From positions 1 to 64,000 of IMG/VR virus record IMGVR_UViG_3300018411_000639: 64,000 nucleotides of DNA; one strand, given 5' to 3'. The stretch comes from a virus. Made by a program: the position numbers and the translations under genes. Positions 33,396 through 53,600 of this stretch are shown piece by piece. Positions within the stretch are counted from its first letter, which is position 1. Each line of letters begins with the position of its first letter. The notes under the pieces were generated by a model that was not told the DNA's origin, did no database searches, and saw only the letters and a program-made list of their open reading frames with translations.

Positions 33396-33408
33396 GAGGT
33401 CCCTCCTT

Positions 33409-34065: not shown

Positions 34066-34081
34066 GAGTGTGGCCTCTTTT

Positions 34082-34900: not shown

Positions 34901-34905
34901 TTAGC

Positions 34906-36274: not shown

Positions 36275-36307
36275 TCGTGTACCTCCTTTCGTCAGTGACT
36301 AATTACT

Positions 36308-39300
36308 TCACTCTGCATCGTCATCCGTTGGGGCTTCTGAGTTATAGACCGCATCACCCGTACCGCCCGGAATGATGTTTTTGCCTCCTTTTACGCCACC
36401 AACGAAAGCCTGTCCTTCCTTATCCAACGGGAAGAGCGTCACGCAGTTATTCCACTGGAACATGTCGAACAACCCCTCAAGAATGATATTCGTTACGACT
36501 TCCCCTGCGATCCATCCGGCCACGGCACCGACCCCGGGAAGGACCGTCCCTCCGGCTAAAGCTAACCCCGTCTTGAGTACGTCAGCAGCTTGCTCTGTCG
36601 TCCTAATTGCCTTGATTGCTTTGAGTCCCGTCTGTGCTGTCTTGACGTGACTCATCAGATCCAATGACTTGATGTAGTCGGCAGAGGTGCTGATGTAGCC
36701 TTTGTAGTCCTTGAATACCTTGCCGCTCTTGACCGCCTGATAGAAGTCCTTCGATAAGGAAACACCCTTTGTTGCGCCTTCGACCGCATTTGCTGCAAAG
36801 GTCCCTGAGCGCACCCCTTGGTTGATTGTCTTGAAGGCAGAGCCGCCACCGTGAATGACGGCACTAGCTGCGCCCATCGTGAGCTTGCGGGTAAAGGAGT
36901 TGGTAGAGGCGATACCGGCCCAAGCAAACATGCTCTTGATGACGTTCCCCTTTCCGGAGTTCTGTGCGTTCGACATGTTCATCAGGCCCGGTGTGATGGT
37001 TGTAACGAAACCTCCTTGAGCACTCATGGAGTGAACGACTTTCCGGACTTCGGCGACGCCGCGGATGCCCGTGTAGGCGTCATACATGTAAAATGTATCG
37101 CAGGGTTTTACGGAAGCGTCACCCAGAAGGAGTAGGCTTCCTTGGTAGGTTTCGCTCCAACTATCAAGCAGGTTTGACACCCCAATCTTGATGGCTGCCG
37201 CTTTCCCGACATCAAAGCCTAGCTTCTCGTAAAGCCAATCCCAACCGAGATAATCCTGAGATATGGTTGTGTCAATTACCGAGGTGTGTTGTTTTGACCA
37301 ATCAATCGACTTGTCGCTGTATAGAGTAGGAGTCGATTTGAGCTCTCCGCCCAGACTGTACATGGCGACAATGTTTGTCTTTACCTCTGAAGAGGAAACC
37401 TTGATTTGGTTGTCCACGATATCACACAAGGAATCGAAGTAATGGAACTGAGAAAAAGTCTTCCCTGCCTCGTAGAGTTTTTCATCCACAATGTCGTACC
37501 GGTACTTGGCAATCCATTGCGGGAGCCCGTAGAAGACACGGCTCTCGAACTGATGGTACATCGGCTGAGCAACAAACTCAGGAACACCTTGCGCCACCAT
37601 CTGCATACAATCCCAAACTGTCTTGTTGTAGATGTTGAAGTTGATGTTCTCTTCTCCGTCAGCGCCGATCAACCATCCATTTGACCCAATGAACGGTTGG
37701 CACTTGTATTTCCCAATATAGAGGTTCTTGCAAAGATCGTATTGCGACTCTTTGGCCAAGTCCGCGAACAAGCCGTTGTTCGAGTAGATTCCGAAATGTT
37801 CGATCCCGAAAGCATTAGGTTCTCCCCACTTTTCGGATAACATGTTCCCTAGTTTATTCTTGCGGGAACGCAACAGGGACGCAATGACATCCGAGGGCTC
37901 TGACCCGAACTTGAAGGCGCCGTTCTCCTGATCCTCTTTGGTGGACACTACGTCGTTGACTAATTCCGCTCCGTCGCTTTGGGCTATGATCGTAACAATG
38001 TCCCCTGCGTCTATGTCGGAAATGACACCATTGAAGCTGATTGGCAACGACATCGGGTTACTGCCATAGCCCATTCTCAGATGGATGCGACAGCCGGGCT
38101 TTACGTTCGCCGTATCGAAGATCATGTTCTTGAGGGCAATCATATTGTCCGTCACCTGCGGGCCGCCTAGCAAACTACCTGTTAGCTTGTACCAACCCAC
38201 GACAAAGGTGTCGCTGACTGCCTCTAGCGCAGTACCGACGAGCGCATCAGGGAGGCCGGCCACCACGTTTACATTATCTGGCGCATGGTCACCGACGTTT
38301 TTGTAGAAATCCCAATAGTCGCTGATGTTGTCACTCACATAAGGAGAGGGTATCTTCGGCGCCTTTGAGATTTCGTTGTAGGCGTTGCTTACCGTGATGG
38401 ATGCGGTGTGGACAGGTTGATCGTTTTCCTGAAAGACGGATACGTCAAGCAAGGAACGGTACGTGTAGAAGTTTGACCAAAGCTTTTGTCCGTCCAACCA
38501 TTCCCCGCCATCATCCACAATCAGGAACATGAACGTAGGGAAGGCCCGAAGCAGGCGACCTCTTGCGGAGTACTCCACCATATCGACCGTCATCCGGTTG
38601 AGCAACTCATCCCCTTCGGCTTCTTCCTGAAAGACTTCTTTGTTCCAGAACTGATCCGCCTTTTCGAAGACGGGCTTGCCGAAGTTATCGAAGTTAAGCG
38701 TTCCTGTCTTCGTTCCCAACGTCTTGCCTGCATCGGTTTGACTCCATGAATAAGTGGACACCGCAGGAGAAGCGGCGACAGAAGACCCCGGCGTACCGAG
38801 GGAGCTACCGTCATAGGCTTGACCTGTCAGCTGAGCGTAGTAGGCGGTCACGTTCGGAACCCAATGGACGTTTAGACCAGTCGGATCGTTAGCGGCTCCT
38901 ACGGGGCAGTATTTCGATCCAATCGCTTCGATCGTAACAAGCCCTTGGTCGATGTAACCTTTCTTCAGGTTGCTAAAGGTGAACGCAAGTCCTTCATCAA
39001 ATGTAGCAAACCGCTTGAGCGTGGACCAGTTGTTATTCCAGTCCATGATGCCGCCGGGGTTGTTGTAGTTACGGATAGCGTTGGATGTCCCGTTACCTGT
39101 TTCGTGAATTACGATAGCCGCAACGATTGCGGGGTCCACGCCGTACTGCTGCCCCAAGGAGATGAAGGTGGACCCTCTTCCCGCCAAGACACCTCCTAGT
39201 GTTTGGTTCATCGTATCCGCAGAAACCTTACTCTTTGTTTCAACGACTCTCGGTGCAGATTCGGTTCCATCGAAGGACAGGTTGCCTGTGGCCTTCCTTG

Positions 39301-41578
39301 TGCTTGTTGTCGCACTTGTCGTGCCTCCTGACGCAAACGCACGGACACGCCCGAATTGATAATAGTTCGCCCAACTCTTCTTTCCATTCGTTACGCCTTT
39401 TTGCGGATTCATCGCTTCAACCGTGTCTTCGTTCCCGAGGTAGATAGCAAGATGCCCGTCCGAAACCAACAAATCCCCTGGTTGTAGCTCGCTTTCGGAA
39501 ATCTTTTGCACACGGGCGGCGTCGTCAACCAAACCTTGATGGTTGGTGCGATACCCAGCCGGAGCAATCCCTAGCTGAATCCACAGCCAACAAATCAGAC
39601 CCGAACAGTCAAACGAGTTTGGCCCTGCCGCACCCCAGACGTAAGGCTTCCCTCTTTGGGCTTGAGCCAAGTCGATGAAGGCTTGCGTGCTTGCGTTTGC
39701 GCTTGTACTGCCTCCGATGGCACCACCTCCGCTCGACCCTCCGCTTCCGCCTGAGCTGCCAGACCAAGTCAGTGACCCGTCATCCCCTGCGATCGCTCCT
39801 TCCGGAATCTCATCGCCCCAATCCTTGTCCGGAACGGTGAAACTGTTCGGTGTCGGCTGCACATTCTTATGCAAGGTCGAGTTGGCATCTGGGTCCATGT
39901 CCTCGTATTTCATCGGGTAGAACACGTAGAAGTCCGGATCAAGGTAGACGGAGTAGTAACCGCCCGGCCCTTTGCCGGGGATGTAAGACACCTCTTTCGG
40001 ATACTCGGTGTAACCCAGAGGAGATAAACCCTTGTTCTTCCGGAAGGCTTGGATAGCAAGGATCGCCACGTTCACTTCTTTGTAAGTTGGAAGAAAGAGG
40101 TCAGGATAAAGCTCTACATGTTTCATCAGCTGTCGCTCTATTTCGTTGTCCTGTCTTGCTTTCCTTTCGAACCCGTCGTAATCCTGTGTAATGGTGTCGG
40201 CCATCGTCCCTTTTTGATTGACCGGGGAGAAGCCTTGGATACTCTCTTGTCGTTCTTGACGGGCGTTAAAGCTGATGCACTGAATTTGTATCTGGTAAAG
40301 GTCTGGGAACTCGGGAACGGTACTGACATTGATATCGTCAATCATAAGATAAGAAGTACCCGTCAGCGAGATGAGTTCGTTCTCGACCTTCACGAACCCG
40401 AAGGAGTTGAATTTCCTGTAGGTTCTTACCAGTGTCTTCGTCATGTTCTCCAGCTGCTGGAACTTGGCGATTACCTTCGCACTGGTTGTTTCCAGTGTAA
40501 AGGTGAAGGTGGTGTCCATGCCGCCCATGAATTGCATCGTGGGCGTGGACTGGTCAGCCAACTGTATCGTCGGAAGAAGGTTGGACAGACCGAACTGCAA
40601 CTCGGTCATCTGAACATTGTCCTCGTTCGTTACGATCGTAGTGAAGCTCTTGTCTTTCAGGAGGTTCTCTCCGATGGTGTAGTCTTCATCATCCACACCG
40701 GCAAGCAGGGTTTCAGGATTCAATGCCTTGAAAACGAAAGAGCCAGTGAGACTCGACTGATCTTTCCCGACAGGTTTCAGGTAGTTCGGCTCTTTTCCGT
40801 CCGAGGACATAGCCCTCTGATAGTAGTAGCGGAACAGATCCCAATCAATGTAATCCTCGAAGAAGATGCCAGGTACTTCTATATAAGGCTCCACGTTAAA
40901 CTCTTGCATAACAAGCGTTGCCTGCAGCGTATCGGGGAACCCCGGCATGGTGTTTACCGAGAACCCTGACAGAGCGACATTGAAGATGGCGTGGGTTGTG
41001 TTCAGGAAGTCATTCACGACTGGCAAGAACGGCGTGCATTTGAATTGAGCTAACAGAGGACGAAGGCCGTCCACATAATACGGACTCTTCGGAAAAGGGG
41101 ATTCCACTTCATACCCGTTGATCTGTTCGTACCCATTGAACACGAACTGGACCACAATCTCTCTTCGGGAATAACCGTGCTTCACTTTTGTCGAACCTTC
41201 TTGTCGGATGGAAACCACACTGTCGGTGGTTGAACTGGTTCTGACGGAGATGAACTCCGGAGGGATCACCAAGGAACAATCCCCTATCCGAAGTGTAAAT
41301 TCATCCGCACCGGTTCGGTGTGGGTATTCGAGGTAGTCGTAATAGTTCGGCGGCTCAACCCGTCGCTCTGGCGTGATTCGGCGAAGTCTGTCCATTACTT
41401 TCTGCGTGTCCTCGTCCTTGATACCTGTTGCCGTGGTGTCGTTGTAGCCTGGATCGGAACCTTTGAATGTTTTCTGCTTTGGCTTTAGCTTTCCGAGGAT
41501 GTCAGACAAGGCATCTGTTGTGTCCTTGCTGACTCCGATGGAAGTTAAAAATGTGTCTAGTAGATCGTCTGCCGGCAT
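36308..41578 (-). CDS. Baseplate hub/tail-associated lysin, 1756 aa, with NlpC/P60 and glucosaminidase/lysozyme-like domains
   Basis: GKPYVWGAAGPNSFDCSGL...PGDLL...GHLAIYLG (NlpC/P60); AAIVIHETGNG...NNPGGI...IGSKY.P; hub-like RIHLRMGYG..F.GVI. Confidence 0.82.
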   Translation of the reverse strand: MPADDLLDTFLTSIGVSKDTTDALSDILGKLKPKQKTFKGSDPGYNDTTATGIKDEDTQKVMDRLRRITPERRVEPPNYYDYLEYPHRTGADEFTLRIGDCSLVIPPEFISVRTSSTTDSVVSIRQEGSTKVKHGYSRREIVVQFVFNGYEQINGYEVESPFPKSPYYVDGLRPLLAQFKCTPFLPVVNDFLNTTHAIFNVALSGFSVNTMPGFPDTLQATLVMQEFNVEPYIEVPGIFFEDYIDWDLFRYYYQRAMSSDGKEPNYLKPVGKDQSSLTGSFVFKALNPETLLAGVDDEDYTIGENLLKDKSFTTIVTNEDNVQMTELQFGLSNLLPTIQLADQSTPTMQFMGGMDTTFTFTLETTSAKVIAKFQQLENMTKTLVRTYRKFNSFGFVKVENELISLTGTSYLMIDDINVSTVPEFPDLYQIQIQCISFNARQERQESIQGFSPVNQKGTMADTITQDYDGFERKARQDNEIERQLMKHVELYPDLFLPTYKEVNVAILAIQAFRKNKGLSPLGYTEYPKEVSYIPGKGPGGYYSVYLDPDFYVFYPMKYEDMDPDANSTLHKNVQPTPNSFTVPDKDWGDEIPEGAIAGDDGSLTWSGSSGGSGGSSGGGAIGGSTSANASTQAFIDLAQAQRGKPYVWGAAGPNSFDCSGLICWLWIQLGIAPAGYRTNHQGLVDDAARVQKISESELQPGDLLVSDGHLAIYLGNEDTVEAMNPQKGVTNGKKSWANYYQFGRVRAFASGGTTSATTSTRKATGNLSFDGTESAPRVVETKSKVSADTMNQTLGGVLAGRGSTFISLGQQYGVDPAIVAAIVIHETGNGTSNAIRNYNNPGGIMDWNNNWSTLKRFATFDEGLAFTFSNLKKGYIDQGLVTIEAIGSKYCPVGAANDPTGLNVHWVPNVTAYYAQLTGQAYDGSSLGTPGSSVAASPAVSTYSWSQTDAGKTLGTKTGTLNFDNFGKPVFEKADQFWNKEVFQEEAEGDELLNRMTVDMVEYSARGRLLRAFPTFMFLIVDDGGEWLDGQKLWSNFYTYRSLLDVSVFQENDQPVHTASITVSNAYNEISKAPKIPSPYVSDNISDYWDFYKNVGDHAPDNVNVVAGLPDALVGTALEAVSDTFVVGWYKLTGSLLGGPQVTDNMIALKNMIFDTANVKPGCRIHLRMGYGSNPMSLPISFNGVISDIDAGDIVTIIAQSDGAELVNDVVSTKEDQENGAFKFGSEPSDVIASLLRSRKNKLGNMLSEKWGEPNAFGIEHFGIYSNNGLFADLAKESQYDLCKNLYIGKYKCQPFIGSNGWLIGADGEENINFNIYNKTVWDCMQMVAQGVPEFVAQPMYHQFESRVFYGLPQWIAKYRYDIVDEKLYEAGKTFSQFHYFDSLCDIVDNQIKVSSSEVKTNIVAMYSLGGELKSTPTLYSDKSIDWSKQHTSVIDTTISQDYLGWDWLYEKLGFDVGKAAAIKIGVSNLLDSWSETYQGSLLLLGDASVKPCDTFYMYDAYTGIRGVAEVRKVVHSMSAQGGFVTTITPGLMNMSNAQNSGKGNVIKSMFAWAGIASTNSFTRKLTMGAASAVIHGGGSAFKTINQGVRSGTFAANAVEGATKGVSLSKDFYQAVKSGKVFKDYKGYISTSADYIKSLDLMSHVKTAQTGLKAIKAIRTTEQAADVLKTGLALAGGTVLPGVGAVAGWIAGEVVTNIILEGLFDMFQWNNCVTLFPLDKEGQAFVGGVKGGKNIIPGGTGDAVYNSEAPTDDDAE
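38013..38028 (+). repeat. Weaker copy of the dispersed motif, ATGTCGGAAATGACAC
   Basis: 14/16 match, same orientation. Confidence 0.5.
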
Positions 41579-41601: not shown

Positions 41602-44600
41602 TTAAAACAAACCGGATAGCTTCTCTTGCAACCAGCTGTCGCTGACTTGAGAAGTGTCGTCTTGGGTATTCAGGTTCACGTTCAAGTTCGGGCCGTTGAC
41701 TTTCTCAACCGTTCGTTTGACGGCCGATAGAACAGCGGAACTGTCTTGGCTGCCTTTTGCTTTCACATGAAACTGAACGCCTTCGTTTCCGACATAAGCT
41801 TTTCTTTCTTTGGACGAAGGAGCGATGCGTGGCGAAACCGCAGGCTTCTGGTCAAACTGTCCGTTGGAGTCGGAGGACCCGCTTCCGTTCGGACGGTGAG
41901 AAGCCTTCAGAGCAGAAGGAGGAGCAGAGAACTGCATCCCTGCAAGCAGACTGGAAAGCCCTACGGCTACACCGACCCCAATCATCGTTTTCCCGAATTT
42001 ACCCATCGGCTTGCGGGCAATTTGTTCAACGGCATCCATCCCTGCACTGGCGACACTCTTTCTTTCTCCGGCACTTTGTCCTGTCTTGCGGATTGCGTCG
42101 TTGATGTCTGAGATACCACCCATGACTTCGTCCTCAAGGCCTCGGGTATTCTGTACGGTATGCCTGTCCATCGCTTGTCTTGCTTCCTCGATGGATGCGC
42201 CGTCCAGTGCTTCGAAGTAGTGGCCGATCTGTTCCGCAGTCTTTCGGGCTGCCTGTGTGTTTCTGGCACCAGAACTTCCTGCTTCGTAGATGCCACGCAA
42301 GTCATTCATGCTGACCTCGTTGATCTTGAGTCCTGCTTGATTGCCGAAAGCGATACGCGCCTCACCTAAGCCTTGGATATTCCGTTCGCTCAGGAAAGAT
42401 TGGATGATGTCGTTGCTGTTCCAATTAAGGTACTGCATCGCTTCGTCAGACTGACTGCTTGCCAAGGTGTCGAAGTCCTCGTCCAGTTGCTTCAGGATGC
42501 CTTGGTTTTGTGTAGAGGCTTGTCTCCAAGGGGTAAGCACGGTTTCTTCTTCCACCGCTTTACTTACGTTCTGATCGTTCAGGCGTTCTGCTGCGCTCTC
42601 GTCCAGGCCTCTCACCTGCTCGGCATAGCGAGTCGTTAACTGTTCGCTTACGTCATGAAGGTTGTAGAGTTGACCTCTCGCCCCTTCTGTCCGTTGGATG
42701 ATCTTCTGAATACCGACATCCCCGCTTGAAGGAGTTGGTATTGTGTCGGAATTGACACCTTTGACGGACGCAGCGTCTCTTGCCATCACGGAGTGACGGA
42801 CTTGTTCTCGTGATTCCGCACTGGCTCCTCGTTCACGGATCTGGTCATTGAACTGACGAATCAGCGAACCGGAGTCCTTGTGTCCCCTACTTCTTAACTC
42901 TCCGGCGAACTGGCTTGTGGCTTTACCTTCGTCCGTCCCGAAGAAACTTTCCTGTGCTCTTTTTGCGATTGCATGATCGTAGCCTTCGTGAGAGAGAATC
43001 GAGGATGCGACTGTTTCTCTTAGTCGATTGGCTCTCTTCCCTCTTTTCGTTACGGTAGACTCTAATACGTCTATTTTATCAGAAGGGGACTGTGATGACA
43101 ACGTCTTCGAGGCGACCAGTGCTTCGACCTGACGAAACTGAAAAGTATCGGCATCCGTCATCGCTTCATCGACAAACTGCTGAGCCCCTTTCGTTATGAT
43201 CTCTTCACGGAAGGCAGGTACATCGCTCCTTGTTCCGATACGGAAACTCTCTTGGATCTTCTGACCAAGGACTTCCATGTCAGCCCCATAGACACGCTGT
43301 TGCTTCTTCGTCTTCGTCTCCTGAAGGACAACGAATGGCTGACGGGAGCGCTCCCCTTGGCCGTAAGATTTCACTTGGTAGATACCCGGATCGTAAACAC
43401 CCTCATTTGGCATCAAGTAATTACTCTTGTCCAAGGCTACTCCGTCGATTCGGATAGCGGAGGGTTGTTTTGCTCTCCGGATGGCTTCCTGTTTTGCTCG
43501 GATAACCTCACTGCTTCCTTCTGCTGTTTCGTTCACAACAGACTTCAGGCGATCCATCAGACCTCTGGGGTTCGGTTGACTTCGGATAAGCGGAGAGTTC
43601 CAGATTTGGGTTGCACGAGGATCTTGGAACATCTTGCTCAAGGATAACAGGGATTGATTCATCGGGATATTCATATCGACTGATCCGTTCAGAATGTCAG
43701 CTGCCACAGGAGCCGTTCCTTTCGGGAAGATCGGACCTTCCATAGCGTCGATTACGTTCTGAAGACCCATCTCATGTTCTCCGTTGGCGAGTTGCGTCAG
43801 ACCTAAGCGGTACTTCGGAACCTTGGTAAGCTCTTCCCCACCATCCTTGATATGTTTAACGTCGATCGGCTTTTGTTCGGATTCATCTGTCATCTTCAAG
43901 AGATTATCTAGGTGGACTTGATCCTCTTTGCTGTCCTTAAACACTTCCTCACCGATTTCACGCAAGACATAGTTTGGTGTGGAGATGTAACCGATAGCCC
44001 CTTTGTTGTGCTTGTTCTTGATGGCGGTTGTAACGACAGCTTCGTTGTGCAGATAATTGTCTTTCAGTTTCCCTGTCGCCGTGTCCGTAGGGAGATTCTG
44101 CTCTCCCTGGATGTATGCAGCATGACGAAGGATAGCATCCCCGGCCTCATCTTCTGGATTGGAAGATCCAAACTTGATGGAGTCACCCACGTACTCGTCG
44201 ATTGCAGCAGCCATGTGGCCGTCTTTCCCTGCATTGGTAAAAGATTGCGCCTCGTAGAGTTTACGTGTCGCTAACTCAGCGGGGTCTTGTTCGTTCAACA
44301 GGCGAACGACATTGCGACCTTTCTCTTTATCGTAGCTGGATTCTAGGTTGAGGATCATGGCCTCCATATCTCCATCGACGTCGGCGTTCCAACTATTCGC
44401 TGTGTACCCTTGAAACATGAGGGTGCGACCCTTTAGTTTGTCGTTCAAGCGGACACTGACAGCTAAGTCGGAACTGGTCTTAAATACCGGGTCACGTTTA
44501 CCTGTCCCGAAAATACCGCGCTCCCTGACGTATTCCAAGCCCGCTTTCTCGAAAGCCTCGTCTGTCGCAGCAACGTAGGCGGGGGAGTTCTTCCAGTCAC

Positions 44601-47600
44601 GGGTTGCTTTCTTCAACTCTTTCTTTGTGGCGCCGGCAATCCCTTCCCGGGAAGGGTCTCCCGCTAAGACAAGCGACCCTTGCCCATCAAGAATACCCTT
44701 TCGGATCAACTGCTCTCGGAAGGCGTTGTCGTTTGCTAATCTTTCGTTTACGACTTGATCGCCGATGTCGCGGAAGTTTACACCCATCTCTTCCAGTTGC
44801 TCACGAGAGGTCTCAAGAACATCTCCGTACCCGATGCGACCATCTGCACCTCTCAGAGTCAGGCCCTTCGTGCTCTCTTTATTGGCGAAAGACAACTCAA
44901 TGCCGTTTTCGAGATCCGCTTTCGCTTTCTCTGCGGCTACAGCCAGTGACTCTCCTTTCATCATCTCTTCTGTTACAGGTGAAGTGATGACGGTACCGTG
45001 AGCGTACCCAGAGAACGGCATACGTCCAGATAGCATGAAGCGATTCATGATGCCGTCCTTATGATTCAGTTCATTCTCAAAGGAACCCATCATATCCTTG
45101 TAGGCATCGTCCATCCGCGACTGCATCTGTTTGATGCTTTCTCCGCTTCTAACTGATTGCCCATCCTCAAGGGCTTTTGCCGAGTTAAGCAGTGAGGCGA
45201 TTTTCTTCTGAGAGTCAGAGAAGAAGACCTGTCCATCTACGGCGTGCGTGCGAACCAATGGAATAACCACATCACCGACTCGTTCCCCTGTTTCCGGGTT
45301 CTTGATGGTTATGCCGCCCAAGTTGACTCGGAACGCATCCACGCCCTCGAAGCTTCCATCGTTCTCGTTGGCTACAGAGAACAGCGTCTGCATCATTTCC
45401 TCAACACTGGCTCCACTCTTAGGGATAAGCAAGTCCTCTAGGTTTACGTCCTGAACCCCTCCGGGACTCTTCTCCCCCATTACGTGAGTAAGGGATGCCA
45501 TGATTCCTCGTAAGGACTTGGCTCCCTCTGCATATTCCGGGGACCGCTGAATAATCCGCATTCTCCGGTCAAGGATCGGCTGTGCAACTTTTTCAAACCG
45601 CTCTCCGGTGAATATACGGAACTCTGCATCGCCCACATTGGAACCCAACATCTGATTGGATTTCGGTGTGACGCTGACCCCTTTTCCTGTATCGCCTTCT
45701 GCTCCTTTTGCCGAGTGCATCTCGGACATAATCATGCGACGAACAGGTACGCGGTAGGAGTTGGCTTGTTCCATCTGGCGCATTTCGGCAGCGACTTGTC
45801 TGACCTTTTCGTCGGGACTGTCTTGGATGGCTCGCACCATATCCCTGACACCTTCTAAGTGACCGGCATCAGAGGAAGGATTTCCCTCGATAAGGAGCGT
45901 CTTCTTCCCTGCCTCATCGAGCAGGAAGTCTCCCGTCTCGCTTCGGCTGTAACGTGCGTTCCAACTTGGCAGATGTTCGTCAGCAAGGCGTTCGAACTCG
46001 CCCTCTACACCTAGTTCGTCAAAGCGTTCCGCCATGTAGTTCACGGAGCTACCTGCGACCACGGAGCCGGATAAATGCTTCCCTAGTTCGAACTTACCGA
46101 CCAAGGCTGCGTCTCCGTAAGATTCTTTCCAGACGGCCTGAACGAGGTCATCGTATTCATCGCCCAAGTCGACGGTGGATGCGACAGTCTTCTCTACGCC
46201 ACTGATGCCGAGTTTGAGCTCTCTCAGCTGACCTTCGGCAACAAACCGCGCTTCGTCACCTTCTCCGACCATCTTGCCGGGGTTCACGTACATGGCGTCG
46301 TCTGCGATTTCTCCGACCTGACCACTTGCCTTGTTGTACACGATGTCGATGGTGCTTCCGTCCAACTCACGCGTACCGATGACATCACCCGTCTTCACGA
46401 AGTCACCCGGCGAAATGGTCATTTTTGCCGTTTCAAGGTCTTTGATCTTGAAGGTGTTCAATTCGTTCTTGTTCCACAAATCCTTGCGGAGAATCGGATT
46501 GACGAGCGAATGCTGCAGGTTCGTATCCGAGTAAAGACGGAACTCTTGCATGACGGCATCGAAGTCTTCGGAAGTATACTTGCCACCAAGTCCGGCCAGA
46601 ACATCTTCCTTGCGGGATTCCGTTGCGTCCAGAGCCTGCAGCATTTCATGGGTGTGCATCTGACGCACGTTCGCCATGACCGTTCCTTCGTAACTCCCCA
46701 TACCGGCGGCTTCCATCTTTCCGTAGTAGTTCTCTGCGGCTTCTCTCGTCACGACACTTTCACCGACACGGATATTCAAGGAGTCCAGTTTGGCTTCCTT
46801 GCCGACAAGATCGTCTTTGTCAAAAGATTGGAAAGACTGGAACTGCATCTGCACCGGACGAGTGAACCCGGTCATAAAGCCATACGAGTTCATGGCGACA
46901 CGATCCAACGTGGAAACAAATCCATCCGCAACTTTGTCTTCCCTCAGGATTTGATGCGCGCCTGTGTCCAGTAGGTTTTTGAACTCTGACACGGTCTGTG
47001 CGTCCGTGATTTCTTCGCCGTAATCCACTACCTTTTGGATAAGACCTTCTCCGTAAACAAGGTTCTTGACGTACCATTCCTGAACGGCGATATCCATATC
47101 CTTCATTTTCTTCAGACTGTTGTGCCCACCGTCGGTAAGTTGCTGACTCCAATTAGCCATGTAACTTGCTACCTTTTCATCGGTTCCCCCTACGACAGGG
47201 CTGAATACTTCGTTCAGCGTTTTTCTTACGCCTTCGTCCCGTTGATAGATCGCAGGCAAGAAGTTGATGGCAGAACTCATATCGACTAGATGGTTGGATG
47301 CAACGTCCGACATGTTCGGAATGACTTTCTTCAAGGCTTGCCCACCTTCTACAACGGTCTGCACCCCACTTAATCCGGGAGCAGCTAGTATCGGCTTGCT
47401 GAAGGCGCGGTTCACGGTCGCATTGACTGCTTGGAAATCACCACGGGAAACCATATCGGCGATCCGCTTGTTCTCGTAGATGTACTGCGTCAAGGATTCA
47501 TTCAACGTATCCTGATAATGTGTCACGAGCTTACCTGTATCCTTGTCCGTGTAGGCGTTCAGGCTGCCAATGATGGACTTCTCTATCCGACCTTTCGACA

Positions 47601-50600
47601 CGGATGCAACCGGGCCATCCATATTGATCTTGCTCATAGGGACGACTCCGGCAAACTCACGAATCTCATCCATTCCTTTTTCATCTGTGAGAGCTTCCAG
47701 TAATCGGTGAGAGTGTTTCTGATCTGTAAAGGCGAGCATCAAGTTATCGTCCGGCCCGTTGAATAGCTGTACGGCGTAATCGTGCGCCCCGACCATCCCC
47801 ATCTTCTTGTTGAAGAAAAGGCTCTCGACTTGCTTCAGGTGATGATCGTCGTAGTTCAGCTCTGCACGCAGTTGTTCTGCCACAGGCGCGAATCCTTTTT
47901 CGGACACCCCAATCGAAACCAGAGGGCGCGTACTGTTGATTGCTTGCTCTACGGTCTTCTGGATGTCATCCGGTGTATTGCCGATCGACGCATGGAACTC
48001 ATCCAGACTATTGCCCTTGTGTTTGAAACCGGATGTATCGAACTCGAGCATCGGTTGCGTTTCTGAATTAATGTAACCCCATAGCTTGCGGTCTTCATCG
48101 CTCAACGTTCCTTCGACGCTTTGTTCGTAAAGGGTGTCGGACGTTACGTCACCGAAATCGAAATCACGCATCTGCTCCGCACTAAAACGGGACTTCACGC
48201 TATCGACGGCTTGGAATAACTCTCCTCCGATTGCTTGTGCGATGTGGTAAGGATCGGTAGCGTCACCGATGACACTGTGCTTGAAGCCTGCAGGCAACAG
48301 CTGACGACCGACAAGATCATCGGCGATAGACTTCAAGGCTTCTACTTGCAGGAACTTTTTACGAGAAGGGAGTTTTTCATGTTTCCCAACCCCTCTTACG
48401 GCATTCAGGATGCCGGCCCCCGCCGAATTGTTCGAGGATGCATTGATCCGTGTATACCCGTTTCCGCCCACAACGTCCGCTACCTCGATGGAGTGAATGT
48501 CCGCAAAGGTCCGGTCGGCAATCCGTTTGTTTCCAGCGATAGAGTTTCCTGTTTCAGGGTCTTTCGTAAGCAAGCCCCAAGCTTTCCGTAGAGCCAATGT
48601 CTTCTGTGTTTCCATGTAGTTGCCTGCAATCTTCGGTGTCAGGTTGCTTGGCACTTGTGTCAGGGCTGCGTTCGTGCCGATGGTATTGATAGCTGTCTCC
48701 ATAGTGATATTGGTGTCTTTCAGGACATTGTAGAGTTCCTTGAATGTCGTCTTCTGTTGCGGAGATTTCAGTCTGCCTAGCACTTGATCCGCATTCAAGG
48801 TCTTGTCCAATTCACTGACAGAGCCGTTCTTCACAAGGAACGCGATATCTTCCATTCGGGCCGGTCTGCCGAAGGTTTCTCTGAAGGCGATGTTTACGTC
48901 CGAGTAAGTGCCGTACATCGTTTCAGCGTAACTGAATCCTCGCCCGTTCCCTAGTTGAAACATTCCCTCAAAGTTCCGTCGCGCGCTATCGGAAATCGTG
49001 CGGCCTACTTGTTGGTCCACCATGGCAGAAGTCACCTCTCCGGGGTTCAACGGAATGCGGTTCACAGCTTGATTGGACTCCAAAGCGCTTCGCAGTTCCG
49101 CTTTCCGTCGGTACTTGCTTCGACCCTGCAAACCAACTTGAGTGGCGTAAGAGCGCAAGCCTTTGAGTGGCATCTGGCTGAAGTCTGTCAGTTCCTCGGC
49201 TTCAACGACTGTATGGATGGAGAGGTCATTCTGGAACAAGGCTTGAATGTCGTCCGGGTTCGATCTGAAAATCGTACCTGTCACATTCTGATTTCCTTCG
49301 CCTGCTCCTCGGAACCGAAGAGCGAACAACCCTTCTGCTCCCGGTTGGTTCTTCGCGACTCGACTTGCGATGCTCCCGTCAAGTTCTGCTGTTGGGATGA
49401 ATTTCATCTCATCCACCTGATAGAACTGATTGCGGTTCAATGCGTAATCAAGGTGCGGCTGAATCTCTCCGTCAATCGCCATGAAGTCGTATCCGTCTTT
49501 GTCGATCTTAACCGCTTTGTTGGCGAACACCACGCTCTCGCCCGCATTGTCTGGTGTGACGGTTCGGTTGTTTGGGTTGGAGCGAATAGCTTCCACACCT
49601 TCGAGGACGTCTTGGTAACTTTTCTGAGCAAGAGTCATGGTCGCTTTCGTATCGGATTCCGCAAGATGGGCGTCAATGTCGATACCGAAGGCCGAAGCCC
49701 ACGAACCCAGACTACCCGGACTGCTTCCTGCACTAAAGCTTTCGATGCCTTGGTTGCTGGCGATACCGCTTAACGAAGACAACATTCTTCCTTGATTGGT
49801 TGCGCTCAGACCGGTTCTGGCATCATAGTGGTTCAGCGCCTTGACGGCAGGGATGCCTTGCTCCTGCAGCACGGCGTTCAGGAAAGGAATGTCATAGTTT
49901 GTGCCATTGTAGCTGAGAAGGGCTTTCCCCGGATTGTTGGTTTCGGTGATGGCGTTCCGTAAGGAAATAAGTTGCTGTCTTCCGACGTCTGTCTGGAGTC
50001 CTTGCTTGCGGCCTACTTTAGCAAGATTGGACAAACCTGACCTTGCCCGACGAAGATCCGTTGGGTCAGGGTCGAGCAGTTTGCCCAGAGCGAAACGTTT
50101 GGAACGAGGATTCATCACAAAGGCGTTGGGGTCAGAATAGACTGTCAGCCGTTTAATGGTGGACTGCTCAGCTGCACTCAACGTATCCCACCCATCTCCC
50201 TCTGCGCGGGCTATCAACTCTAGGAAGCCTCTTCGTTGCCGTTCTTCTACACCAAAGGTAAGGACTTCGCTGATTGGCTTATTTGCCTGAATCATACCCG
50301 AAGCATTCTTCGTTACCTGTTGCCGCACAAGAGCGACTTCCGTCATGGCCAGCAATCCTTTTTCGGACTCCGTTGCGTTTGGTCCGAAGTTCCCAAGGGT
50401 TTCCAAGTCGAAACCTGTAACGTCGCCTCCGTCCACCTCGAAGATGTTGCGGATGTTCTCTGCCTGCTTCTGGATTTCATTGAGGTCAAAACCTTTTGCT
50501 GCTTCAGGGTAAGTGGTGAACGCAAACGGCACACGGGATTGTCTGGCGAGAAGTTGGTTCAGCGTATCTCTTTGTTTCTGGTAAAGCTCCTGTGCGTCGG

Positions 50601-50676
50601 GATTATCCCACATTGTCCCAAGGTTGCTGTTGAAACTGCTTCTTGTTGTGTCTCGGTTGATGTCAGCTAAATACAT
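41602..50676 (-). CDS. Giant 3024-aa single-chain two-barrel DNA-dependent RNA polymerase-like protein with an N-terminal DEDDh exonuclease (probable virion/injected protein)
   Basis: Exonuclease motifs FDLET, YNGTNYDIPFL and HLAESD; beta-like PGDFVKTGDVIG and KLGISGVEK; beta'-like HKDGIMNRFMLSGRMPFSG, KRDP and NADVDGD; located in the tail operon. Confidence 0.8.
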   Translation of the reverse strand: MYLADINRDTTRSSFNSNLGTMWDNPDAQELYQKQRDTLNQLLARQSRVPFAFTTYPEAAKGFDLNEIQKQAENIRNIFEVDGGDVTGFDLETLGNFGPNATESEKGLLAMTEVALVRQQVTKNASGMIQANKPISEVLTFGVEERQRRGFLELIARAEGDGWDTLSAAEQSTIKRLTVYSDPNAFVMNPRSKRFALGKLLDPDPTDLRRARSGLSNLAKVGRKQGLQTDVGRQQLISLRNAITETNNPGKALLSYNGTNYDIPFLNAVLQEQGIPAVKALNHYDARTGLSATNQGRMLSSLSGIASNQGIESFSAGSSPGSLGSWASAFGIDIDAHLAESDTKATMTLAQKSYQDVLEGVEAIRSNPNNRTVTPDNAGESVVFANKAVKIDKDGYDFMAIDGEIQPHLDYALNRNQFYQVDEMKFIPTAELDGSIASRVAKNQPGAEGLFALRFRGAGEGNQNVTGTIFRSNPDDIQALFQNDLSIHTVVEAEELTDFSQMPLKGLRSYATQVGLQGRSKYRRKAELRSALESNQAVNRIPLNPGEVTSAMVDQQVGRTISDSARRNFEGMFQLGNGRGFSYAETMYGTYSDVNIAFRETFGRPARMEDIAFLVKNGSVSELDKTLNADQVLGRLKSPQQKTTFKELYNVLKDTNITMETAINTIGTNAALTQVPSNLTPKIAGNYMETQKTLALRKAWGLLTKDPETGNSIAGNKRIADRTFADIHSIEVADVVGGNGYTRINASSNNSAGAGILNAVRGVGKHEKLPSRKKFLQVEALKSIADDLVGRQLLPAGFKHSVIGDATDPYHIAQAIGGELFQAVDSVKSRFSAEQMRDFDFGDVTSDTLYEQSVEGTLSDEDRKLWGYINSETQPMLEFDTSGFKHKGNSLDEFHASIGNTPDDIQKTVEQAINSTRPLVSIGVSEKGFAPVAEQLRAELNYDDHHLKQVESLFFNKKMGMVGAHDYAVQLFNGPDDNLMLAFTDQKHSHRLLEALTDEKGMDEIREFAGVVPMSKINMDGPVASVSKGRIEKSIIGSLNAYTDKDTGKLVTHYQDTLNESLTQYIYENKRIADMVSRGDFQAVNATVNRAFSKPILAAPGLSGVQTVVEGGQALKKVIPNMSDVASNHLVDMSSAINFLPAIYQRDEGVRKTLNEVFSPVVGGTDEKVASYMANWSQQLTDGGHNSLKKMKDMDIAVQEWYVKNLVYGEGLIQKVVDYGEEITDAQTVSEFKNLLDTGAHQILREDKVADGFVSTLDRVAMNSYGFMTGFTRPVQMQFQSFQSFDKDDLVGKEAKLDSLNIRVGESVVTREAAENYYGKMEAAGMGSYEGTVMANVRQMHTHEMLQALDATESRKEDVLAGLGGKYTSEDFDAVMQEFRLYSDTNLQHSLVNPILRKDLWNKNELNTFKIKDLETAKMTISPGDFVKTGDVIGTRELDGSTIDIVYNKASGQVGEIADDAMYVNPGKMVGEGDEARFVAEGQLRELKLGISGVEKTVASTVDLGDEYDDLVQAVWKESYGDAALVGKFELGKHLSGSVVAGSSVNYMAERFDELGVEGEFERLADEHLPSWNARYSRSETGDFLLDEAGKKTLLIEGNPSSDAGHLEGVRDMVRAIQDSPDEKVRQVAAEMRQMEQANSYRVPVRRMIMSEMHSAKGAEGDTGKGVSVTPKSNQMLGSNVGDAEFRIFTGERFEKVAQPILDRRMRIIQRSPEYAEGAKSLRGIMASLTHVMGEKSPGGVQDVNLEDLLIPKSGASVEEMMQTLFSVANENDGSFEGVDAFRVNLGGITIKNPETGERVGDVVIPLVRTHAVDGQVFFSDSQKKIASLLNSAKALEDGQSVRSGESIKQMQSRMDDAYKDMMGSFENELNHKDGIMNRFMLSGRMPFSGYAHGTVITSPVTEEMMKGESLAVAAEKAKADLENGIELSFANKESTKGLTLRGADGRIGYGDVLETSREQLEEMGVNFRDIGDQVVNERLANDNAFREQLIRKGILDGQGSLVLAGDPSREGIAGATKKELKKATRDWKNSPAYVAATDEAFEKAGLEYVRERGIFGTGKRDPVFKTSSDLAVSVRLNDKLKGRTLMFQGYTANSWNADVDGDMEAMILNLESSYDKEKGRNVVRLLNEQDPAELATRKLYEAQSFTNAGKDGHMAAAIDEYVGDSIKFGSSNPEDEAGDAILRHAAYIQGEQNLPTDTATGKLKDNYLHNEAVVTTAIKNKHNKGAIGYISTPNYVLREIGEEVFKDSKEDQVHLDNLLKMTDESEQKPIDVKHIKDGGEELTKVPKYRLGLTQLANGEHEMGLQNVIDAMEGPIFPKGTAPVAADILNGSVDMNIPMNQSLLSLSKMFQDPRATQIWNSPLIRSQPNPRGLMDRLKSVVNETAEGSSEVIRAKQEAIRRAKQPSAIRIDGVALDKSNYLMPNEGVYDPGIYQVKSYGQGERSRQPFVVLQETKTKKQQRVYGADMEVLGQKIQESFRIGTRSDVPAFREEIITKGAQQFVDEAMTDADTFQFRQVEALVASKTLSSQSPSDKIDVLESTVTKRGKRANRLRETVASSILSHEGYDHAIAKRAQESFFGTDEGKATSQFAGELRSRGHKDSGSLIRQFNDQIRERGASAESREQVRHSVMARDAASVKGVNSDTIPTPSSGDVGIQKIIQRTEGARGQLYNLHDVSEQLTTRYAEQVRGLDESAAERLNDQNVSKAVEEETVLTPWRQASTQNQGILKQLDEDFDTLASSQSDEAMQYLNWNSNDIIQSFLSERNIQGLGEARIAFGNQAGLKINEVSMNDLRGIYEAGSSGARNTQAARKTAEQIGHYFEALDGASIEEARQAMDRHTVQNTRGLEDEVMGGISDINDAIRKTGQSAGERKSVASAGMDAVEQIARKPMGKFGKTMIGVGVAVGLSSLLAGMQFSAPPSALKASHRPNGSGSSDSNGQFDQKPAVSPRIAPSSKERKAYVGNEGVQFHVKAKGSQDSSAVLSAVKRTVEKVNGPNLNVNLNTQDDTSQVSDSWLQEKLSGLF
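42743..42758 (+). repeat. Dispersed 16-bp motif (exact), inside the RNAP-like gene
   Basis: GTGTCGGAATTGACAC. Confidence 0.9.
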
Positions 50677-50695: not shown

Positions 50696-53600
50696 TTATA
50701 CGAGTTTGGATGTGCGAATCTTCTCTTCGATTTCCTGTCGCTTATCCTTCTTCATTTTTACATCTACACCCACATCGCGGGTGCTGTAGCGGTAATCTAC
50801 CTCTATATCTTCTAAGCCCATCTCGGTAAGGACATCCATAAGTTTGTTTCTCACCGTCAGGGCATTACTGCGGACATTCATTTTCGGAAGAGGGATTTCT
50901 CCTTCTGCATTGGCTTGGTCGATTTGATCCTGCCAAACATCGAACTCCCCGAAGTCCAGTCCCTGCTGCTTAATCATCTTGATTTTCACACTGTCGAGGT
51001 CTGTCTCCTCGTTCCACCCTTCCCACTCTGCATCGGGCAGAACGTTCTCCTGGAAGTACGCATCCAGAGAAGGCTTATCTTCGACAGGCATTCCCCATGT
51101 ACTCTCTAAAGCTCGTCGCAGGTACTTTGGAGCCAGACTCAGAATCTTGCCCTTCTCTTCTTCCGGAGCCTTCATAAAGTACTTCATGTACTGGCGGTCT
51201 GTCTTTGGTAACGCAGCTAGAATGTTGGCCAGAGGATCTCCACGATCATAACCGTACATCGTCTTCTCCGATTTGTTGTAGTAGTCGATGGCTTTGGTGG
51301 CATCTGAGGACAGGCGAGTGACGCTTCTGTCGCTTTGGATCTCGGTCAGCTCCTTATTGATTTGACCGACAATGAGTGACTGAGAGGCTTGCATGTCAAC
51401 GTACTTTGGCGCACCTGTCTTGAACTCGAACTGATCTCTGTCTGCGTAGTTCATCTTGATGAATTTCTTGAAGTCCATCAGATCCCGTTTGCGGGCTTTC
51501 TTGTCCTGTCCGTTGAACTCGGCACTCTTCATGAAGGCTTTCACGTCGAAGCCTTCTTCTTTGAGCGTCTTTTGTGCGTACTCCTCGTAGAGTCCGCGGT
51601 ACTTCACGTATTTCAAGGTGTCGATGTATTCGTTCAGATTGCGTTCCTTCTGGCGTGTTTCTGGTATCCAGCGTTCGCCTGTCGTAGCTTCTTTTGTTCC
51701 GACAATAGCTTTCCCGATGGCGGTGACAGAGAAACCTGTCAAGGCTCCCAATATCTTTCCGTAACGGGTAGATCCGAACGCTGACCCGAGCAACGTCCCC
51801 CAAATCAAACCACTTGGTCGGTTGATGCTTTCCCGAATGGCAGGAATCAGGAAGTCACGTACAGGATGCGTCCAGTTCTGGAAATCCTTGCCGTACACTT
51901 CTCGTTGCTCGTAACTCTCTGCCGCACTTCTTACCTGAAGGACTTTCGTATGAAACGGTGTGTTCAGATGGGACACAGCCTCCCATGCTTTCCCGAAGGC
52001 GATCTCCATCGGATTGTAGCGGGCATGGATGGATGCAGGAGTGAAGTCATCCTCTTTCTCCGTAGCAAGGCCGCGCTTCACCATGGTCTTGTTTACATTC
52101 AATCCGTTGCTGTAGACCACGGCCCGAATACTGTTGACGGTATCTTTTGTGACCTGATTGGCTTCATCCATATCGTAACCGATTCTCACGGATCGACCGG
52201 GTTTCAGCAGCTGAGCCAGTTGCTTGCTCGCTTCCTCTCCCGTTCCATCTGCCATCGCTTCGCTTACGTGTACTCCGGCTAGTTTGATTGGATTGTCGGG
52301 CATCTCGTTCGCGATAAAGGTGTTGTTGCTCAGCATCTTTTTGACGGTCACAGTCTTCATTTCAAGGTTCGCCGTTTTGAATCGGTACGGATAAATCCGC
52401 ATCGGCTCTTTGGCTTCGGTGACGCGATTGTCGATGGCAGACACTTCTTCTTGCTCTTCTGTTGTGATCTTCATCTTGGACAGCATAGCCTTTGTTTCTG
52501 CATATTCTCGCGAGTACGGAGCCACATCGCCTAATATCCTCAGGCGGTCAATCGGATCGTAAAGTTCTCCTCTGCCAATCGACCCATCCGCTATACCGTT
52601 CCGGATGTAATCACGGGCTGTCCGAAGGTTATTCAAGGACTCCTGAAGCAAATCATCGCTATATTTGAATTTTGCTGTATACGTCTGATTTGGGTCGTCC
52701 CGGTTTATATATTGAACATACCCGTTCCCCTTTTCTTGTCCTAGCGCCCACATATAATAATTCACTTGTTTGTGGTGGTCTGCTCGAGCCTCTCCTGTTT
52801 TGAGGACCTCTCTAAAGCCTTTGTCACTAATTGTCTTGATGTCGACTACACCTATCTTTGTTCTCGAAGATTCGTCATGAATGACGGCATCGTAGAAACC
52901 GAGGACGCCGTTCTCTTCGTCTTCGATCTTCCCTTCTGTATCAAGGGCGAGGCCGGACTTCAACCACATATCTTCTATTTTTTTGTGGTACTCCGTTCCT
53001 TCATCAACGATACTCTGCAAGCCTTCGTCCGTAATCGGGTCTTGGTTCAGCAAGTGCTTGATGATTTCCTCGGGTTCTTTTCCTAGAGTGGACGAACCGA
53101 CACGAAGCGCCGTAGGGTCTTTGATGTTCCACGTTCGCTCGTAGCCTTCTCCAGGTAGTCGCATCTCTCCCTTGGCTACTTTCGTATAAGGGTCACCTGT
53201 TTGGAAGTTGGTAAAGTAATCCTCGCCCGGCATCCATTCTGGCATCGTGTTCTTGATTGGGTTGATGTACGCAACATCATTCCTTCTTTTCGGCAAGAAG
53301 CGTCGGAAGATTTCCGAGAACTCTCCTCCGAGCCCGCCAGCGTTCTGATCCCAGAACTGGCGATTGAACGACATAGACCAACCCGGGGTGTCTATAACTT
53401 CTTTTTCAGCTTGCGCTTCACCGGTAACGAATCCTTGGATTGCAAAGCCGTAAATACCAGCTATATCGCCCCACTGGTTCGCCTGTTCGCTCAAGCTATG
53501 CCCTACACTGTTTGGTGAAGCAACATCCCCTATTGTAGGTTCAGGCGTTACTGGTGGAGTCGTGTCCACTCGCGTGTCCGCACTTACAGCTTTGCTTAGC

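Follow-up and report, generated by a model that had tools for sequence, protein, structure and literature searches.

Virion RNA polymerases (RNAPs) allow a phage to begin transcription without the enzyme of its host. To our knowledge, only a few architectures of such enzymes have been recognised, namely those of N4, the crAss-like gp66, the multisubunit phiKZ type, and gp96 of phage P23-45. The last of these is a tape measure protein of 5,002 amino acids (aa), the N-terminal 1,200 residues of which form a two-barrel virion RNAP (Chaban et al., 2024; PMC10770324). It transcribes the pre-early genes of the phage, including the gene that encodes the non-virion RNAP, gp64 (PMC10770324; PDB 8h2m/8h2n). 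Here, we describe P0001, a giant protein encoded by the IMG/VR virus record IMGVR_UViG_3300018411_000639. The window that we analyzed comprises the first 64 kb of this 112,616-b record, which has a CheckV completeness of ~51%. Like P23-45 gp96, P0001 is a giant protein that occupies the position of the tape measure protein and combines a single-chain two-barrel RNAP, a DxDGD loop, and a membrane segment. The evidence presented below supports the view that P0001 joins a virion RNA polymerase to a protein of the tape-measure slot and belongs to a family of which we found no published description, its location in the virion being presumed from its genomic setting and its C-terminus.

The gene and its translation signal are located as follows:

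41602..50676, minus strand: the giant P0001 gene, a single open reading frame (ORF) located at the tape-measure position within the tail module, encoding a product of 3,024 aa
50682..50690, minus strand: a strong Shine-Dalgarno sequence of the P0001 gene, GAAGGAGGG, read from the sequence 5 nt before the ATG

The frame (ORF 41602-50676, minus strand) runs for 3,024 codons with no interruption and specifies a protein of 330 kDa. It starts 19 nt past the stop codon of the upstream gene, which encodes a 1,910-aa protein, and its end lies 23 nt from the downstream gene, which encodes a 1,756-aa protein. The presence of GAAGGAGGG together with the 19-nt gap points to co-transcription and independent translation of P0001 within the tail operon. 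An identical protein is also encoded on a contig of 165,794 b.

The initial annotation of this DNA, made without database searches, had proposed that P0001 is a single-chain two-barrel RNAP. The motifs upon which the proposal was based were all found in the translation where they had been placed: PGDFVKTGDVIG at residues 1423-1434, SGQV at 1451-1454, the lysines K1488 and K1496, HKDGIMNRFMLSGRMPFSG at 1872-1890, R2061-D-P, NADVDGD at 2097-2103 (with N2097 located 36 residues past R2061, as claimed), KGAIGYIS at 2225-2232, and EQKPIDVKH at 2267-2275. The K-x7-K spacing is not significant by itself, as it occurs nine times within P0001. Rather, the quoted motifs exceed chance because they are conserved in 31 full-length homologues. 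Two AlphaFold2 models were built on family alignments. Model 1 covers residues 1260-2450 (pLDDT 81.6, pTM 0.82) and model 2 covers residues 351-1550 (pLDDT 82.3, pTM 0.63). Both were compared with known structures using VIA-align, which for model 1 covered 48,161 representative chains. The polymerase features that emerge are listed below, from the N- to the C-terminus of the protein:

45715..47856, minus strand: beta/Rpb2-like module, residues ~941-1654, with the lobes, D1124, R1273-P1274, the flap, the two lysines and K1533-H1534 (VIA-align)
46234..46473, minus strand: sandwich-barrel hybrid motif (SBHM, the "flap" barrel), residues ~1402-1481, which holds PGDFVKTGDVIG...SGQV (VIA-align)
46189..46215, minus strand: K1488-x6-E1495-K1496, with the pair of basic residues from the beta-type barrel (conservation)
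43561..45489, minus strand: beta'/Rpb1-like module, residues ~1730-2372 (Foldseek and VIA-align)
45007..45063, minus strand: HKDGIMNRFMLSGRMPFSG, a switch-2-like segment (conservation of K1873 and S1889)
44368..44496, minus strand: catalytic barrel signature, R2061-D-P2063 ... N2097-ADVDGD2103 (near-invariance)
43942..44043, minus strand: bridge-helix-like long helix pair, residues ~2212-2245, KGAIGYIS...N...R (helices 953-967 and 970-986 of model 1)
43852..43878, minus strand: trigger-loop-like EQKPIDVKH (loop between helices 991-1009 and 1027-1038 of model 1)

When model 1 was compared with the PDB using Foldseek, 324 matches were obtained at E<=1e-3. The 48 of these that were listed are all RNAP chains, 47 of them beta'/gamma subunits and one the non-virion RNAP (nvRNAP) of phage AR9; the best listed match is 7l7b_D (5e-6), and that to AR9 is 7s01_d (1e-5). 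Model 2 gave no Foldseek match to the PDB at E<=1e-3, and its resemblance to beta was seen by VIA-align alone. In the latter analysis, residues 1260-1654 matched plastid beta (8qma_A; Z 13.1, 210 residues aligned, 3.5 Å), the phiKZ nvRNAP (7ogp_C; Z 12.2), AR9 (7s00_C; Z 11.7), Pol I A135 (Z 11.7), and Xanthomonas beta (Z 11.1). Residues 591-1200 of model 2 matched Pol I A135 (4c2m_B; Z 9.3, 392 residues aligned, 4.5 Å, chain residues 45-973), with further beta-type matches to Pol IV, plastid beta, African swine fever virus, Pol III, vaccinia and Xanthomonas beta, so that this part of the model covers second-largest subunits from about chain residue 22-60 onwards (Z 7.0-9.3). Structures of the isolated beta1/beta2 lobes (4kbj_A and 3mlq_A) were matched weakly, with Z scores of 5.4-5.8. 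The SBHM barrel directly precedes K1488 and, in accord with the earlier suggestion that PGDFVKTGDVIG...SGQV belongs to the sandwich-barrel insert, it matched beta-flap domains in both models (E. coli 3tbi_B, Z 6.0; T. thermophilus 3woe_A, Z 5.8). Other matches of the barrel were to the NusG insert (Z 7.8) and to lipoyl/biotinyl barrels (Z 6-7).

The C-terminal half of the core is similarly well matched. Residues 1730-2372 resemble Rpb1 (9mu7_A; Z 11.3 with 377 residues aligned), vaccinia Rpo147 (6rfl_A; Z 11.1), Sulfolobus A' (Z 10.8) and M. tuberculosis beta' (Z 9.5), and positions 626-890 of model 1 are matched by double-psi beta-barrel (DPBB) domains, i.e., Cdc48-N and a designed DPBB. The bridge-helix-like stretch and the trigger-loop-like helix-loop-helix, which spans residues 2250-2297, both fall within the range aligned to beta'/Rpb1 chains, a range that is reported by its ends only. 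The switch-2-like segment HKDGIMNRFMLSGRMPFSG may correspond to KQGRFRQNLLGKRVDYSG of beta'. The family profile aligns the DVDGD stretch, albeit weakly, with the NADFDGD region of beta' (phiKZ gp55, E 0.04). P2063 and D2099 are separated by 35 residues, which fits the pattern [RK]xP-x(20-100)-DxDxD that was used as a filter by Chaban et al. (PMC10770324 supplement). Eight residues are invariant in all two-barrel RNAPs (Ruprich-Robert & Thuriaux, 2010; PMC2919709) and seven of them were identified in P0001, namely R2061, P2063, D2099, D2101, D2103, K1488, and K1496. The two lysines are spaced exactly as K979 and K987 of Rpb2 listed in the same study. The proposal of a single-chain two-barrel enzyme is therefore upheld by the conservation of the signature and by two confident models, beta-like and then beta'-like, and the models support the idea that the core is a complete one-chain beta-then-beta' fusion of the cellular RNAP type.

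How well these residues are conserved was determined from relatives that were recovered with HMMER by searching 1.84 billion cluster representatives exhaustively, residues 1350-2450 serving as the query. The search returned 38 relatives, mostly of 2,800-3,400 aa, with identities to P0001 of 23-33% (46% for one fragment). The family comprises at least 38 clusters at 50% identity, every one of which is metagenomic, and its full-length members span 2,512-3,430 aa. Counts were taken from a MAFFT alignment of 31 full-length members, in which the mean column identity is about 19-24%. Against this background, K1488 is present in 30 of the 31 proteins, and E1495 and K1496 are present in all; R2061 (K in the exception), P2063, D2099, D2101 (E in the exception), and D2103 are each present in 30. 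In the bridge-helix-like stretch, K2225 and S2232 are invariant, while G2229 is found in 30 and N2235 in 28 members; in the trigger-loop-like segment, the corresponding numbers are 31 for E2267 and K2274, 29 for Q2268, and 28 for H2275. K1873 and S1889 are retained in 29 and 27 members, respectively, and D563, R566, R567, D1124, R1273, K1533, and H1534 in 28-31 (D1124 in 30). The initial annotation would have been put in doubt had its residues not been conserved in homologues; among the 31 members, the signature residues vary little or not at all. A further condition, that the two lysines and DxDGD should come together, is addressed indirectly, by the matches to whole subunits and by conservation. 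Since the catalytic residues are kept in 30 of 31 proteins while the remainder has diverged to 20-30% identity, purifying selection appears to act on catalysis.

Nearly all of the exceptions in the alignment stem from a single protein, P0028, a metagenomic homologue of 3,008 aa. It lacks D90, D1124, R1273, K1488, K1533, R2061, the DxDxD triad, and H2275 together, but retains its full length and the C-terminus that is typical of the slot. P0028 therefore looks like a natural, catalytically dead copy, as far as can be told from its residues. Their joint loss is what would be expected if they served one catalytic function or active site, and the maintenance of full length despite that loss suggests that the protein has a separate, non-catalytic, structural role.

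Few of these relationships are detectable by routine means. Searches of Pfam, PHROGs and the PDB with the single P0001 sequence gave only a sub-threshold RNase_H_2 match, and a Pfam scan of 16 family members detected no RNAP family, including PF05183. A word-indexed search of 5.8 billion proteins found no match besides P0001 itself; megablast and tblastn against 50,697 GenBank phage records gave nothing at E 1e-3 and only chance-level matches at E 10; the ESM Atlas held no usable match; and a scan of genome contigs revealed no relative and no host or prophage copy. Likewise, we found no publication or annotation library that describes the family. Because the family is recognized neither by Pfam and PHROGs nor by BLAST searches of GenBank phages, annotation pipelines will call its members hypothetical or tape measure proteins.

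The SBHM flap is also informative with regard to the clade to which the polymerase belongs. This insert is common to the beta barrels of cellular, killer-plasmid and jumbo-phage multisubunit enzymes, and is lacking in RNA-dependent RNA polymerases (RdRPs), YonO, and NCgl1702-like enzymes (Iyer et al., 2021; PMC7824862). On that basis, the location of an SBHM flap before the K-x7-K strand identifies P0001 as a cellular-type beta-then-beta' fusion. The VIA-align Z scores are 11-13 to beta/beta' subunits, as compared to 6.5-8.3 to single-chain enzymes. The latter, namely QDE-1 (8.3), RDR2 (8.2), P74-26 gp62 (7.8), crAss phi14:2 gp66 (7.1), and P23-45 gp96 (6.5-6.6), span both halves of model 1. 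The label "RdRP/YonO type" that had been attached to the trigger-loop-like segment is thus refuted by the flap, the lobes, and the higher scores to beta/beta', and the start of the polymerase module, which had been put at about residue 1300, has to be moved, as the beta-like match begins near residue 940.

The remainder of the protein consists of the following parts:

49642..50439, minus strand: DEDDh (DnaQ/RNase T/TREX-type) 3'-5' exonuclease, residues ~80-345 (motifs and profile)
47857..49626, minus strand: region of ~590 residues, 351-940, with the invariant D563-x2-R566-R567 (model 2, moderate to high confidence)
41995..43560, minus strand: C-terminal body of low conservation, residues 2373-2894 (least conserved stretch among family members)
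41605..41994, minus strand: C-terminal anchor, residues 2895-3024, with a hydrophobic helix at 2898-2916 and a conserved tail up to W3015 (homology to gp146 of Bacillus phage 0305phi8-36)

The exonuclease possesses all three motifs of its class, ExoI (D90-x-E92), ExoII (N257-x4-D262), and ExoIII (H337-x4-D342), and each of the six residues is found in 30-31 of the 31 homologues. The family profile matches TREX1, DnaQ, and ExoI chains at E values of 1.4e-5 to 3e-4, and the RNase_H_2 match to Pfam, at 18.1 bits, is below the 22-bit cut-off. Judged by its motifs, the exonuclease domain is intact. No solved structure was matched by region 351-940, although the match lists were filled by the polymerase and the region was barely tested. 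The D563-x-x-R566-R567 motif (48976-48990, minus strand), which lies between the exonuclease and the polymerase and does not vary within the family, may represent a third site of catalysis or of nucleic-acid binding. No family match was obtained for residues 2373-2894, and the part of model 1 that comprises residues 2365-2450 is of low confidence or disordered. The hydrophobic helix near the C-terminus had been noted previously and was located at residues 2898-2916; a hydrophobic segment is found 110-125 aa before the C-terminus in 21 of the 31 homologues. No metallopeptidase domain was found in P0001.

The genes on either side of P0001 are also large and have homologues in Bacillus phage 0305phi8-36, to which the phage, an uncultured jumbo myophage, is distantly related:

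50696..56428, minus strand: upstream neighbour, 1,910 aa, a homologue of 0305phi8-36 gp145 with a nuclease segment (32% identity over the full length)
36308..41578, minus strand: downstream neighbour, a 1,756-aa baseplate hub/tail lysin, homologue of gp147 (tblastn, 31% identity, E 6e-89)

The upstream protein has a Cas4/PD-(D/E)xK-like segment at residues 1137-1279 (PHROG 1706/1990) and a weak SNase match, and the downstream hub protein contains NlpC/P60 and glucosaminidase domains. Both of the adjacent giant tail-slot proteins, i.e., the 1,910-aa protein and P0001, therefore carry nucleic-acid enzyme domains. The order sheath, tube, chaperones, gp145 homologue, P0001, hub homologue is that of 0305phi8-36, where gp146, like P0001, is the second gene past the chaperone-like ORFs. 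Five related IMG/VR contigs, 123-213 kb in length, have the three-gene block as well, with products of ~1.9k, 3k and 1.9k aa. A further tail-module protein, of 560 aa (59165-60847, minus strand), is encoded between the tube and chaperone-like genes; it has two PG_binding_1 repeats and endolysin-like PHROG matches, and is, in addition to the hub, a second virion protein that is directed at the cell wall.

In its GenBank notes, gp146 is described as a hypothetical tape measure protein, and both gp145 and gp146 are listed as virion proteins identified by mass spectrometry. The tape-measure assignment was based upon tail length, and only the last 60 residues of gp146 align with its nearest relative (Hardies et al., 2007; PMC2147016). 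P0001 likewise lies between homologues of gp145 and gp147, and its last 125 residues, including the hydrophobic helix, are homologous to those of gp146 (BLASTP E 2e-6; hhalign probability 92%, E 7e-7). In contrast, gp146 (2,537 aa) lacks a DxDxD motif, and nothing in it is detectably similar to the exonuclease and polymerase parts of P0001. The slot and the C-terminal module are thus conserved, whereas the bodies are unlike. The initial annotation had placed P0001 between the tape measure gene and the hub; this proved incorrect, as P0001 itself fills the tape-measure slot of gp146 and shares its C-terminus. P0001 gave no tape measure match in Pfam or PHROGs, and one homologue had a weak match to TMP_3 (E 0.014). 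Residues 351-2372 are predicted by the two models to be globular.

A separate ORF of 1,190-1,409 aa that matches PF05183 (RdRP/YonO-like) is present in both of the 100%-complete relatives and in one that is 86% complete. The loops of these YonO-like proteins read DCDGD, DVDGD, or DFDGD, and 0305phi8-36 likewise carries a PF05183-type ORF, orf99. Relatives of the P0001 lineage are thus predicted to encode two unrelated two-barrel polymerases. When the polymerase region of P0001 was compared with the YonO-like ORFs of its relatives by hhalign, the probability was 0.2% and no similarity was found. An origin of P0001 by duplication of the other polymerase of the phage, in the manner of P23-45, was rejected for this reason. 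PF05183 was not found in Acinetobacter phage ME3, which is discussed below.

We consider it probable that P0001 is a virion-borne, injected "pilot" enzyme, which combines an exonuclease, a beta-beta' RNAP, and a gp146-type C-terminus. During assembly, the C-terminal module would recruit the protein into the interior of the tail. Contraction of the sheath would then expel it ahead of, or together with, the DNA, and the hydrophobic helix would engage the membrane. Once inside, the polymerase would transcribe the genes that enter first without recourse to the host RNAP, probably including the gene for the YonO/RdRP-like non-virion polymerase, and the exonuclease in cis would either trim backtracked or misincorporated RNA 3' ends, or resect the DNA 3' end so as to expose a template. 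We infer that P0001 is catalytically active, that its template is DNA and its substrate rNTPs, and that the exonuclease has such a role; packaging and injection we infer from synteny, from the homology of the C-terminus to the virion-detected gp146, and from the precedent of P23-45. A possible, but decidedly tentative, extension is that P0001 is the first RNAP with a covalently attached 3'-5' exonuclease, acting in cis either to remove RNA 3' ends (replacing Gre/TFIIS) or to resect genome ends. Such resection may yield a single-stranded template or promoter at which the injected protein starts. Together with the nuclease-bearing gp145 homologue, P0001 may constitute injected machinery for the processing of nucleic acids, located at the tip of the contractile tail.

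Several observations weigh against an injected polymerase of this kind. Homology to a known virion protein is limited to the last 125 of 3,024 residues. The core is predicted to be compact, at ~125 kDa (pTM 0.82), with clamp-like elements, and would not fit folded in a tail tube; storage in the unfolded state, or at another location, would then be necessary. It is DNA polymerases, and not RNAPs, that typically have a 3'-5' exonuclease fused to them. N2097, the equivalent of N458 of E. coli beta', which is implicated in the recognition of the 2'-OH, is not invariant. No second polymerase gene, and no PF05183 match, was found in the 51%-complete record that encodes P0001. Finally, with respect to the eighth invariant residue of two-barrel enzymes, Rpb2 D837, the 31-member alignment has no invariant acid between R1273 and K1488; candidates for this position are D1124 (30 of 31, lost in P0028) and E1495 (31 of 31).

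Alternatively, P0001 could be an active phage RNAP that is not packaged, but made late with the tail genes to act in the infected cell, for instance on late genes or within the replication/transcription machinery, its position in the operon being accidental. A compact, clamp-bearing core is awkward cargo for a tail tube, and the link to a virion protein extends to the terminal 125 aa only. We nevertheless regard this explanation as unlikely, given that the tail operon is tightly packed (with gaps of 19 nt to the gp145 homologue and 23 nt to the hub), that 0305phi8-36, ME3, and five metagenomic relatives all retain the slot and the C-terminal anchor, and that an enzyme made late and lacking a route to the next cell would be redundant with the separate YonO-like polymerase. 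The loss of catalytic residues from P0028, which is still full length and ends in the slot-typical C-terminus, also speaks for a structural or assembly role. That same protein, together with the occupancy of the 0305phi8-36 tape-measure slot, the shared C-terminus, and the weak TMP_3 match (E 0.014) in one homologue, could be taken to mean that P0001 is a structural tape measure or tail-lumen protein in which the modules for polymerase and exonuclease persist as inactive relics. We find this highly improbable, since the catalytic residues of both enzymes are kept in 30 of 31 lineages amid surroundings at 20-30% identity and the region is predicted to be compact and globular, rather than a long helix.

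Other explanations concern the reaction that is catalyzed. As a DEDDh 3'-5' exonuclease in cis is a hallmark of proofreading DNA polymerases, and as archaeal PolD demonstrates that a two-barrel fold can polymerize dNTPs, P0001 could be a two-barrel DNA polymerase or primase-polymerase, functionally analogous to PolD, that is delivered or used to start phage DNA synthesis; the variation at position 2097, where homologues have N, E, A, V, or K, would be compatible with this. However, the best structural matches are all to RNAP beta/beta', with lobes, flap, bridge-helix and trigger-loop regions, whereas PolD has no more than the two barrels in common with RNAPs (PMC10770324). No PolD DP2 chain is among the matches listed, although such absence is no proof. 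A polymerase of the PolD kind therefore seems very unlikely to us. We attach just as little credence to a polymerase that copies RNA or single-stranded templates as RdRPs and QDE-1 do, for instance in order to counter host defences with antisense or decoy RNA. QDE-1 and the plant RDR2 are matched over both barrels (Z 8.2-8.3), and the choice of template cannot be read from a sequence; but the structural likeness to DNA-dependent multisubunit RNAPs (Z 11-13) is clearly greater, and the SBHM flap, the lobes and the switch-2-like segment are features of the DNA-dependent clade.

While analyzing the window, we noticed a 12-mer, TGTCGGAATTGA, that occurs at 12 sites with up to one mismatch, as compared to 0.52 expected, between positions 573 and 57576 (for example at 4661, 6132, 11449, 11833, 31934, 32130, 42744, and 57565). 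Eleven copies are on the plus strand, where nearly all genes run on the minus strand, and the single minus-strand copy lies in a plus-strand gene, so that the sense strand always reads TCAATTCCGACA. One copy (42744-42755) is located within the P0001 gene. The motif could be a promoter for a phage polymerase, a pause or termination signal, or some other signal at the level of DNA.

P0001 indicates that a cellular-type beta/beta' core can be accommodated as one chain in a tail-slot giant of contractile-tailed jumbo phages. We found no description of an RNAP core combined with an intact proofreading-type exonuclease in one chain. The protein also bears upon the question of how large folded enzymes pass through phage tails, and upon the evolution of RNAPs by fusion and fission of beta and beta'.

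A candidate for a shorter version of the same design is encoded by a cultured jumbo myophage, Acinetobacter phage vB_AbaM_ME3, in which the order gp145-like gene, ME3_36, hub resembles that around P0001. ME3_36 (33172-37983, plus strand; 1,603 aa, annotated as hypothetical) contains R-E-P, followed after 40 residues by DHDQD, and has a hydrophobic segment ~100 aa before its C-terminus. The BFVD model of an uncharacterized ME3 protein, held in pieces of ~800 aa, matches model 1 with a Foldseek E value of 1.4e-10; the size of this entry suggests that it is ME3_36. ME3_36 is, however, half the size of P0001, and their similarity is not significant at the level of either sequence or profile (hhalign probability <1%). 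We think that ME3_36 is probably an unannotated tail-slot RNA polymerase, and its tail gene order and motifs make ME3 a cultured candidate system for experiments. Further BFVD models are also similar: an unnamed protein (A0A7R7G2L5_2) matches the 1,191-residue core at E 2e-16, with a TM score of 0.47 over ~1,260 columns; a "minor tail protein" of the uncultured Siphoviridae sp. ctnpt50 (A0A8S5SD80_1) has an E value of 1e-13; and a protein of Microcystis phage MaMV-DC (A0A075BUT7_2) has one of 9e-6. Tail-associated, single-chain polymerases of the cellular type may, to judge by these models, be widespread.

Compared with enzymes that have been characterized, the core of P0001 is most like the phiKZ and AR9 RNAPs and cellular beta/beta', which provide the best structural matches and share with it an SBHM flap and a loop of the NADxDGD type; elements resembling their bridge helix and trigger loop are predicted in P0001 as well. 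The phiKZ and AR9 enzymes are, however, split over 4-5 polypeptides that are encoded outside the tail module, whereas P0001 is one chain, with an exonuclease, in the tail slot; in addition, the literature describes the virion RNAP of the phiKZ group as being packaged in the capsid. In placing a polymerase within a giant protein, P0001 resembles crAss phi14:2 gp66 and the N4 virion RNAP, which are delivered from the virion for early transcription. Both of the latter are podoviral, and they differ from P0001 in type, gp66 belonging to the RdRP/QDE-1-like clade and the N4 enzyme being a T7-like right-hand polymerase. We know of no exonuclease carried by either.

The closest precedent, and the only published one that we found, is P23-45 gp96. 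Beyond the features noted at the outset, the two lineages are alike in having a second, separate two-barrel polymerase, although gp96 and gp64 are paralogues and the polymerases of the P0001 lineage have no mutual profile similarity. gp96 belongs to a non-contractile siphovirus and has its RNAP at the N-terminus, whereas P0001 belongs to a phage with a contractile tail and has its RNAP in the center (~940-2370). The gp96 polymerase is flat and clampless and is a member of the single-subunit phage/plasmid clade, as opposed to the cellular beta/beta' type of P0001 with its lobes, flap, and clamp-like elements; and gp96 carries a metallopeptidase, where P0001 has a DEDDh exonuclease ahead of the RNAP. 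PDB searches gave no sequence match between them, and the structural similarity (Z 6.5-6.6) is below that to cellular subunits. Supplementary Data 4 of Chaban et al. has no entry with DVDGD, DTDGD, DIDGD, or DVDAD, the commonest loop variants of the P0001 family, and none for ME3, MaMV-DC or 0305phi8-36. By analogy, P0001 thus appears to work like gp96 without being a member of its family.

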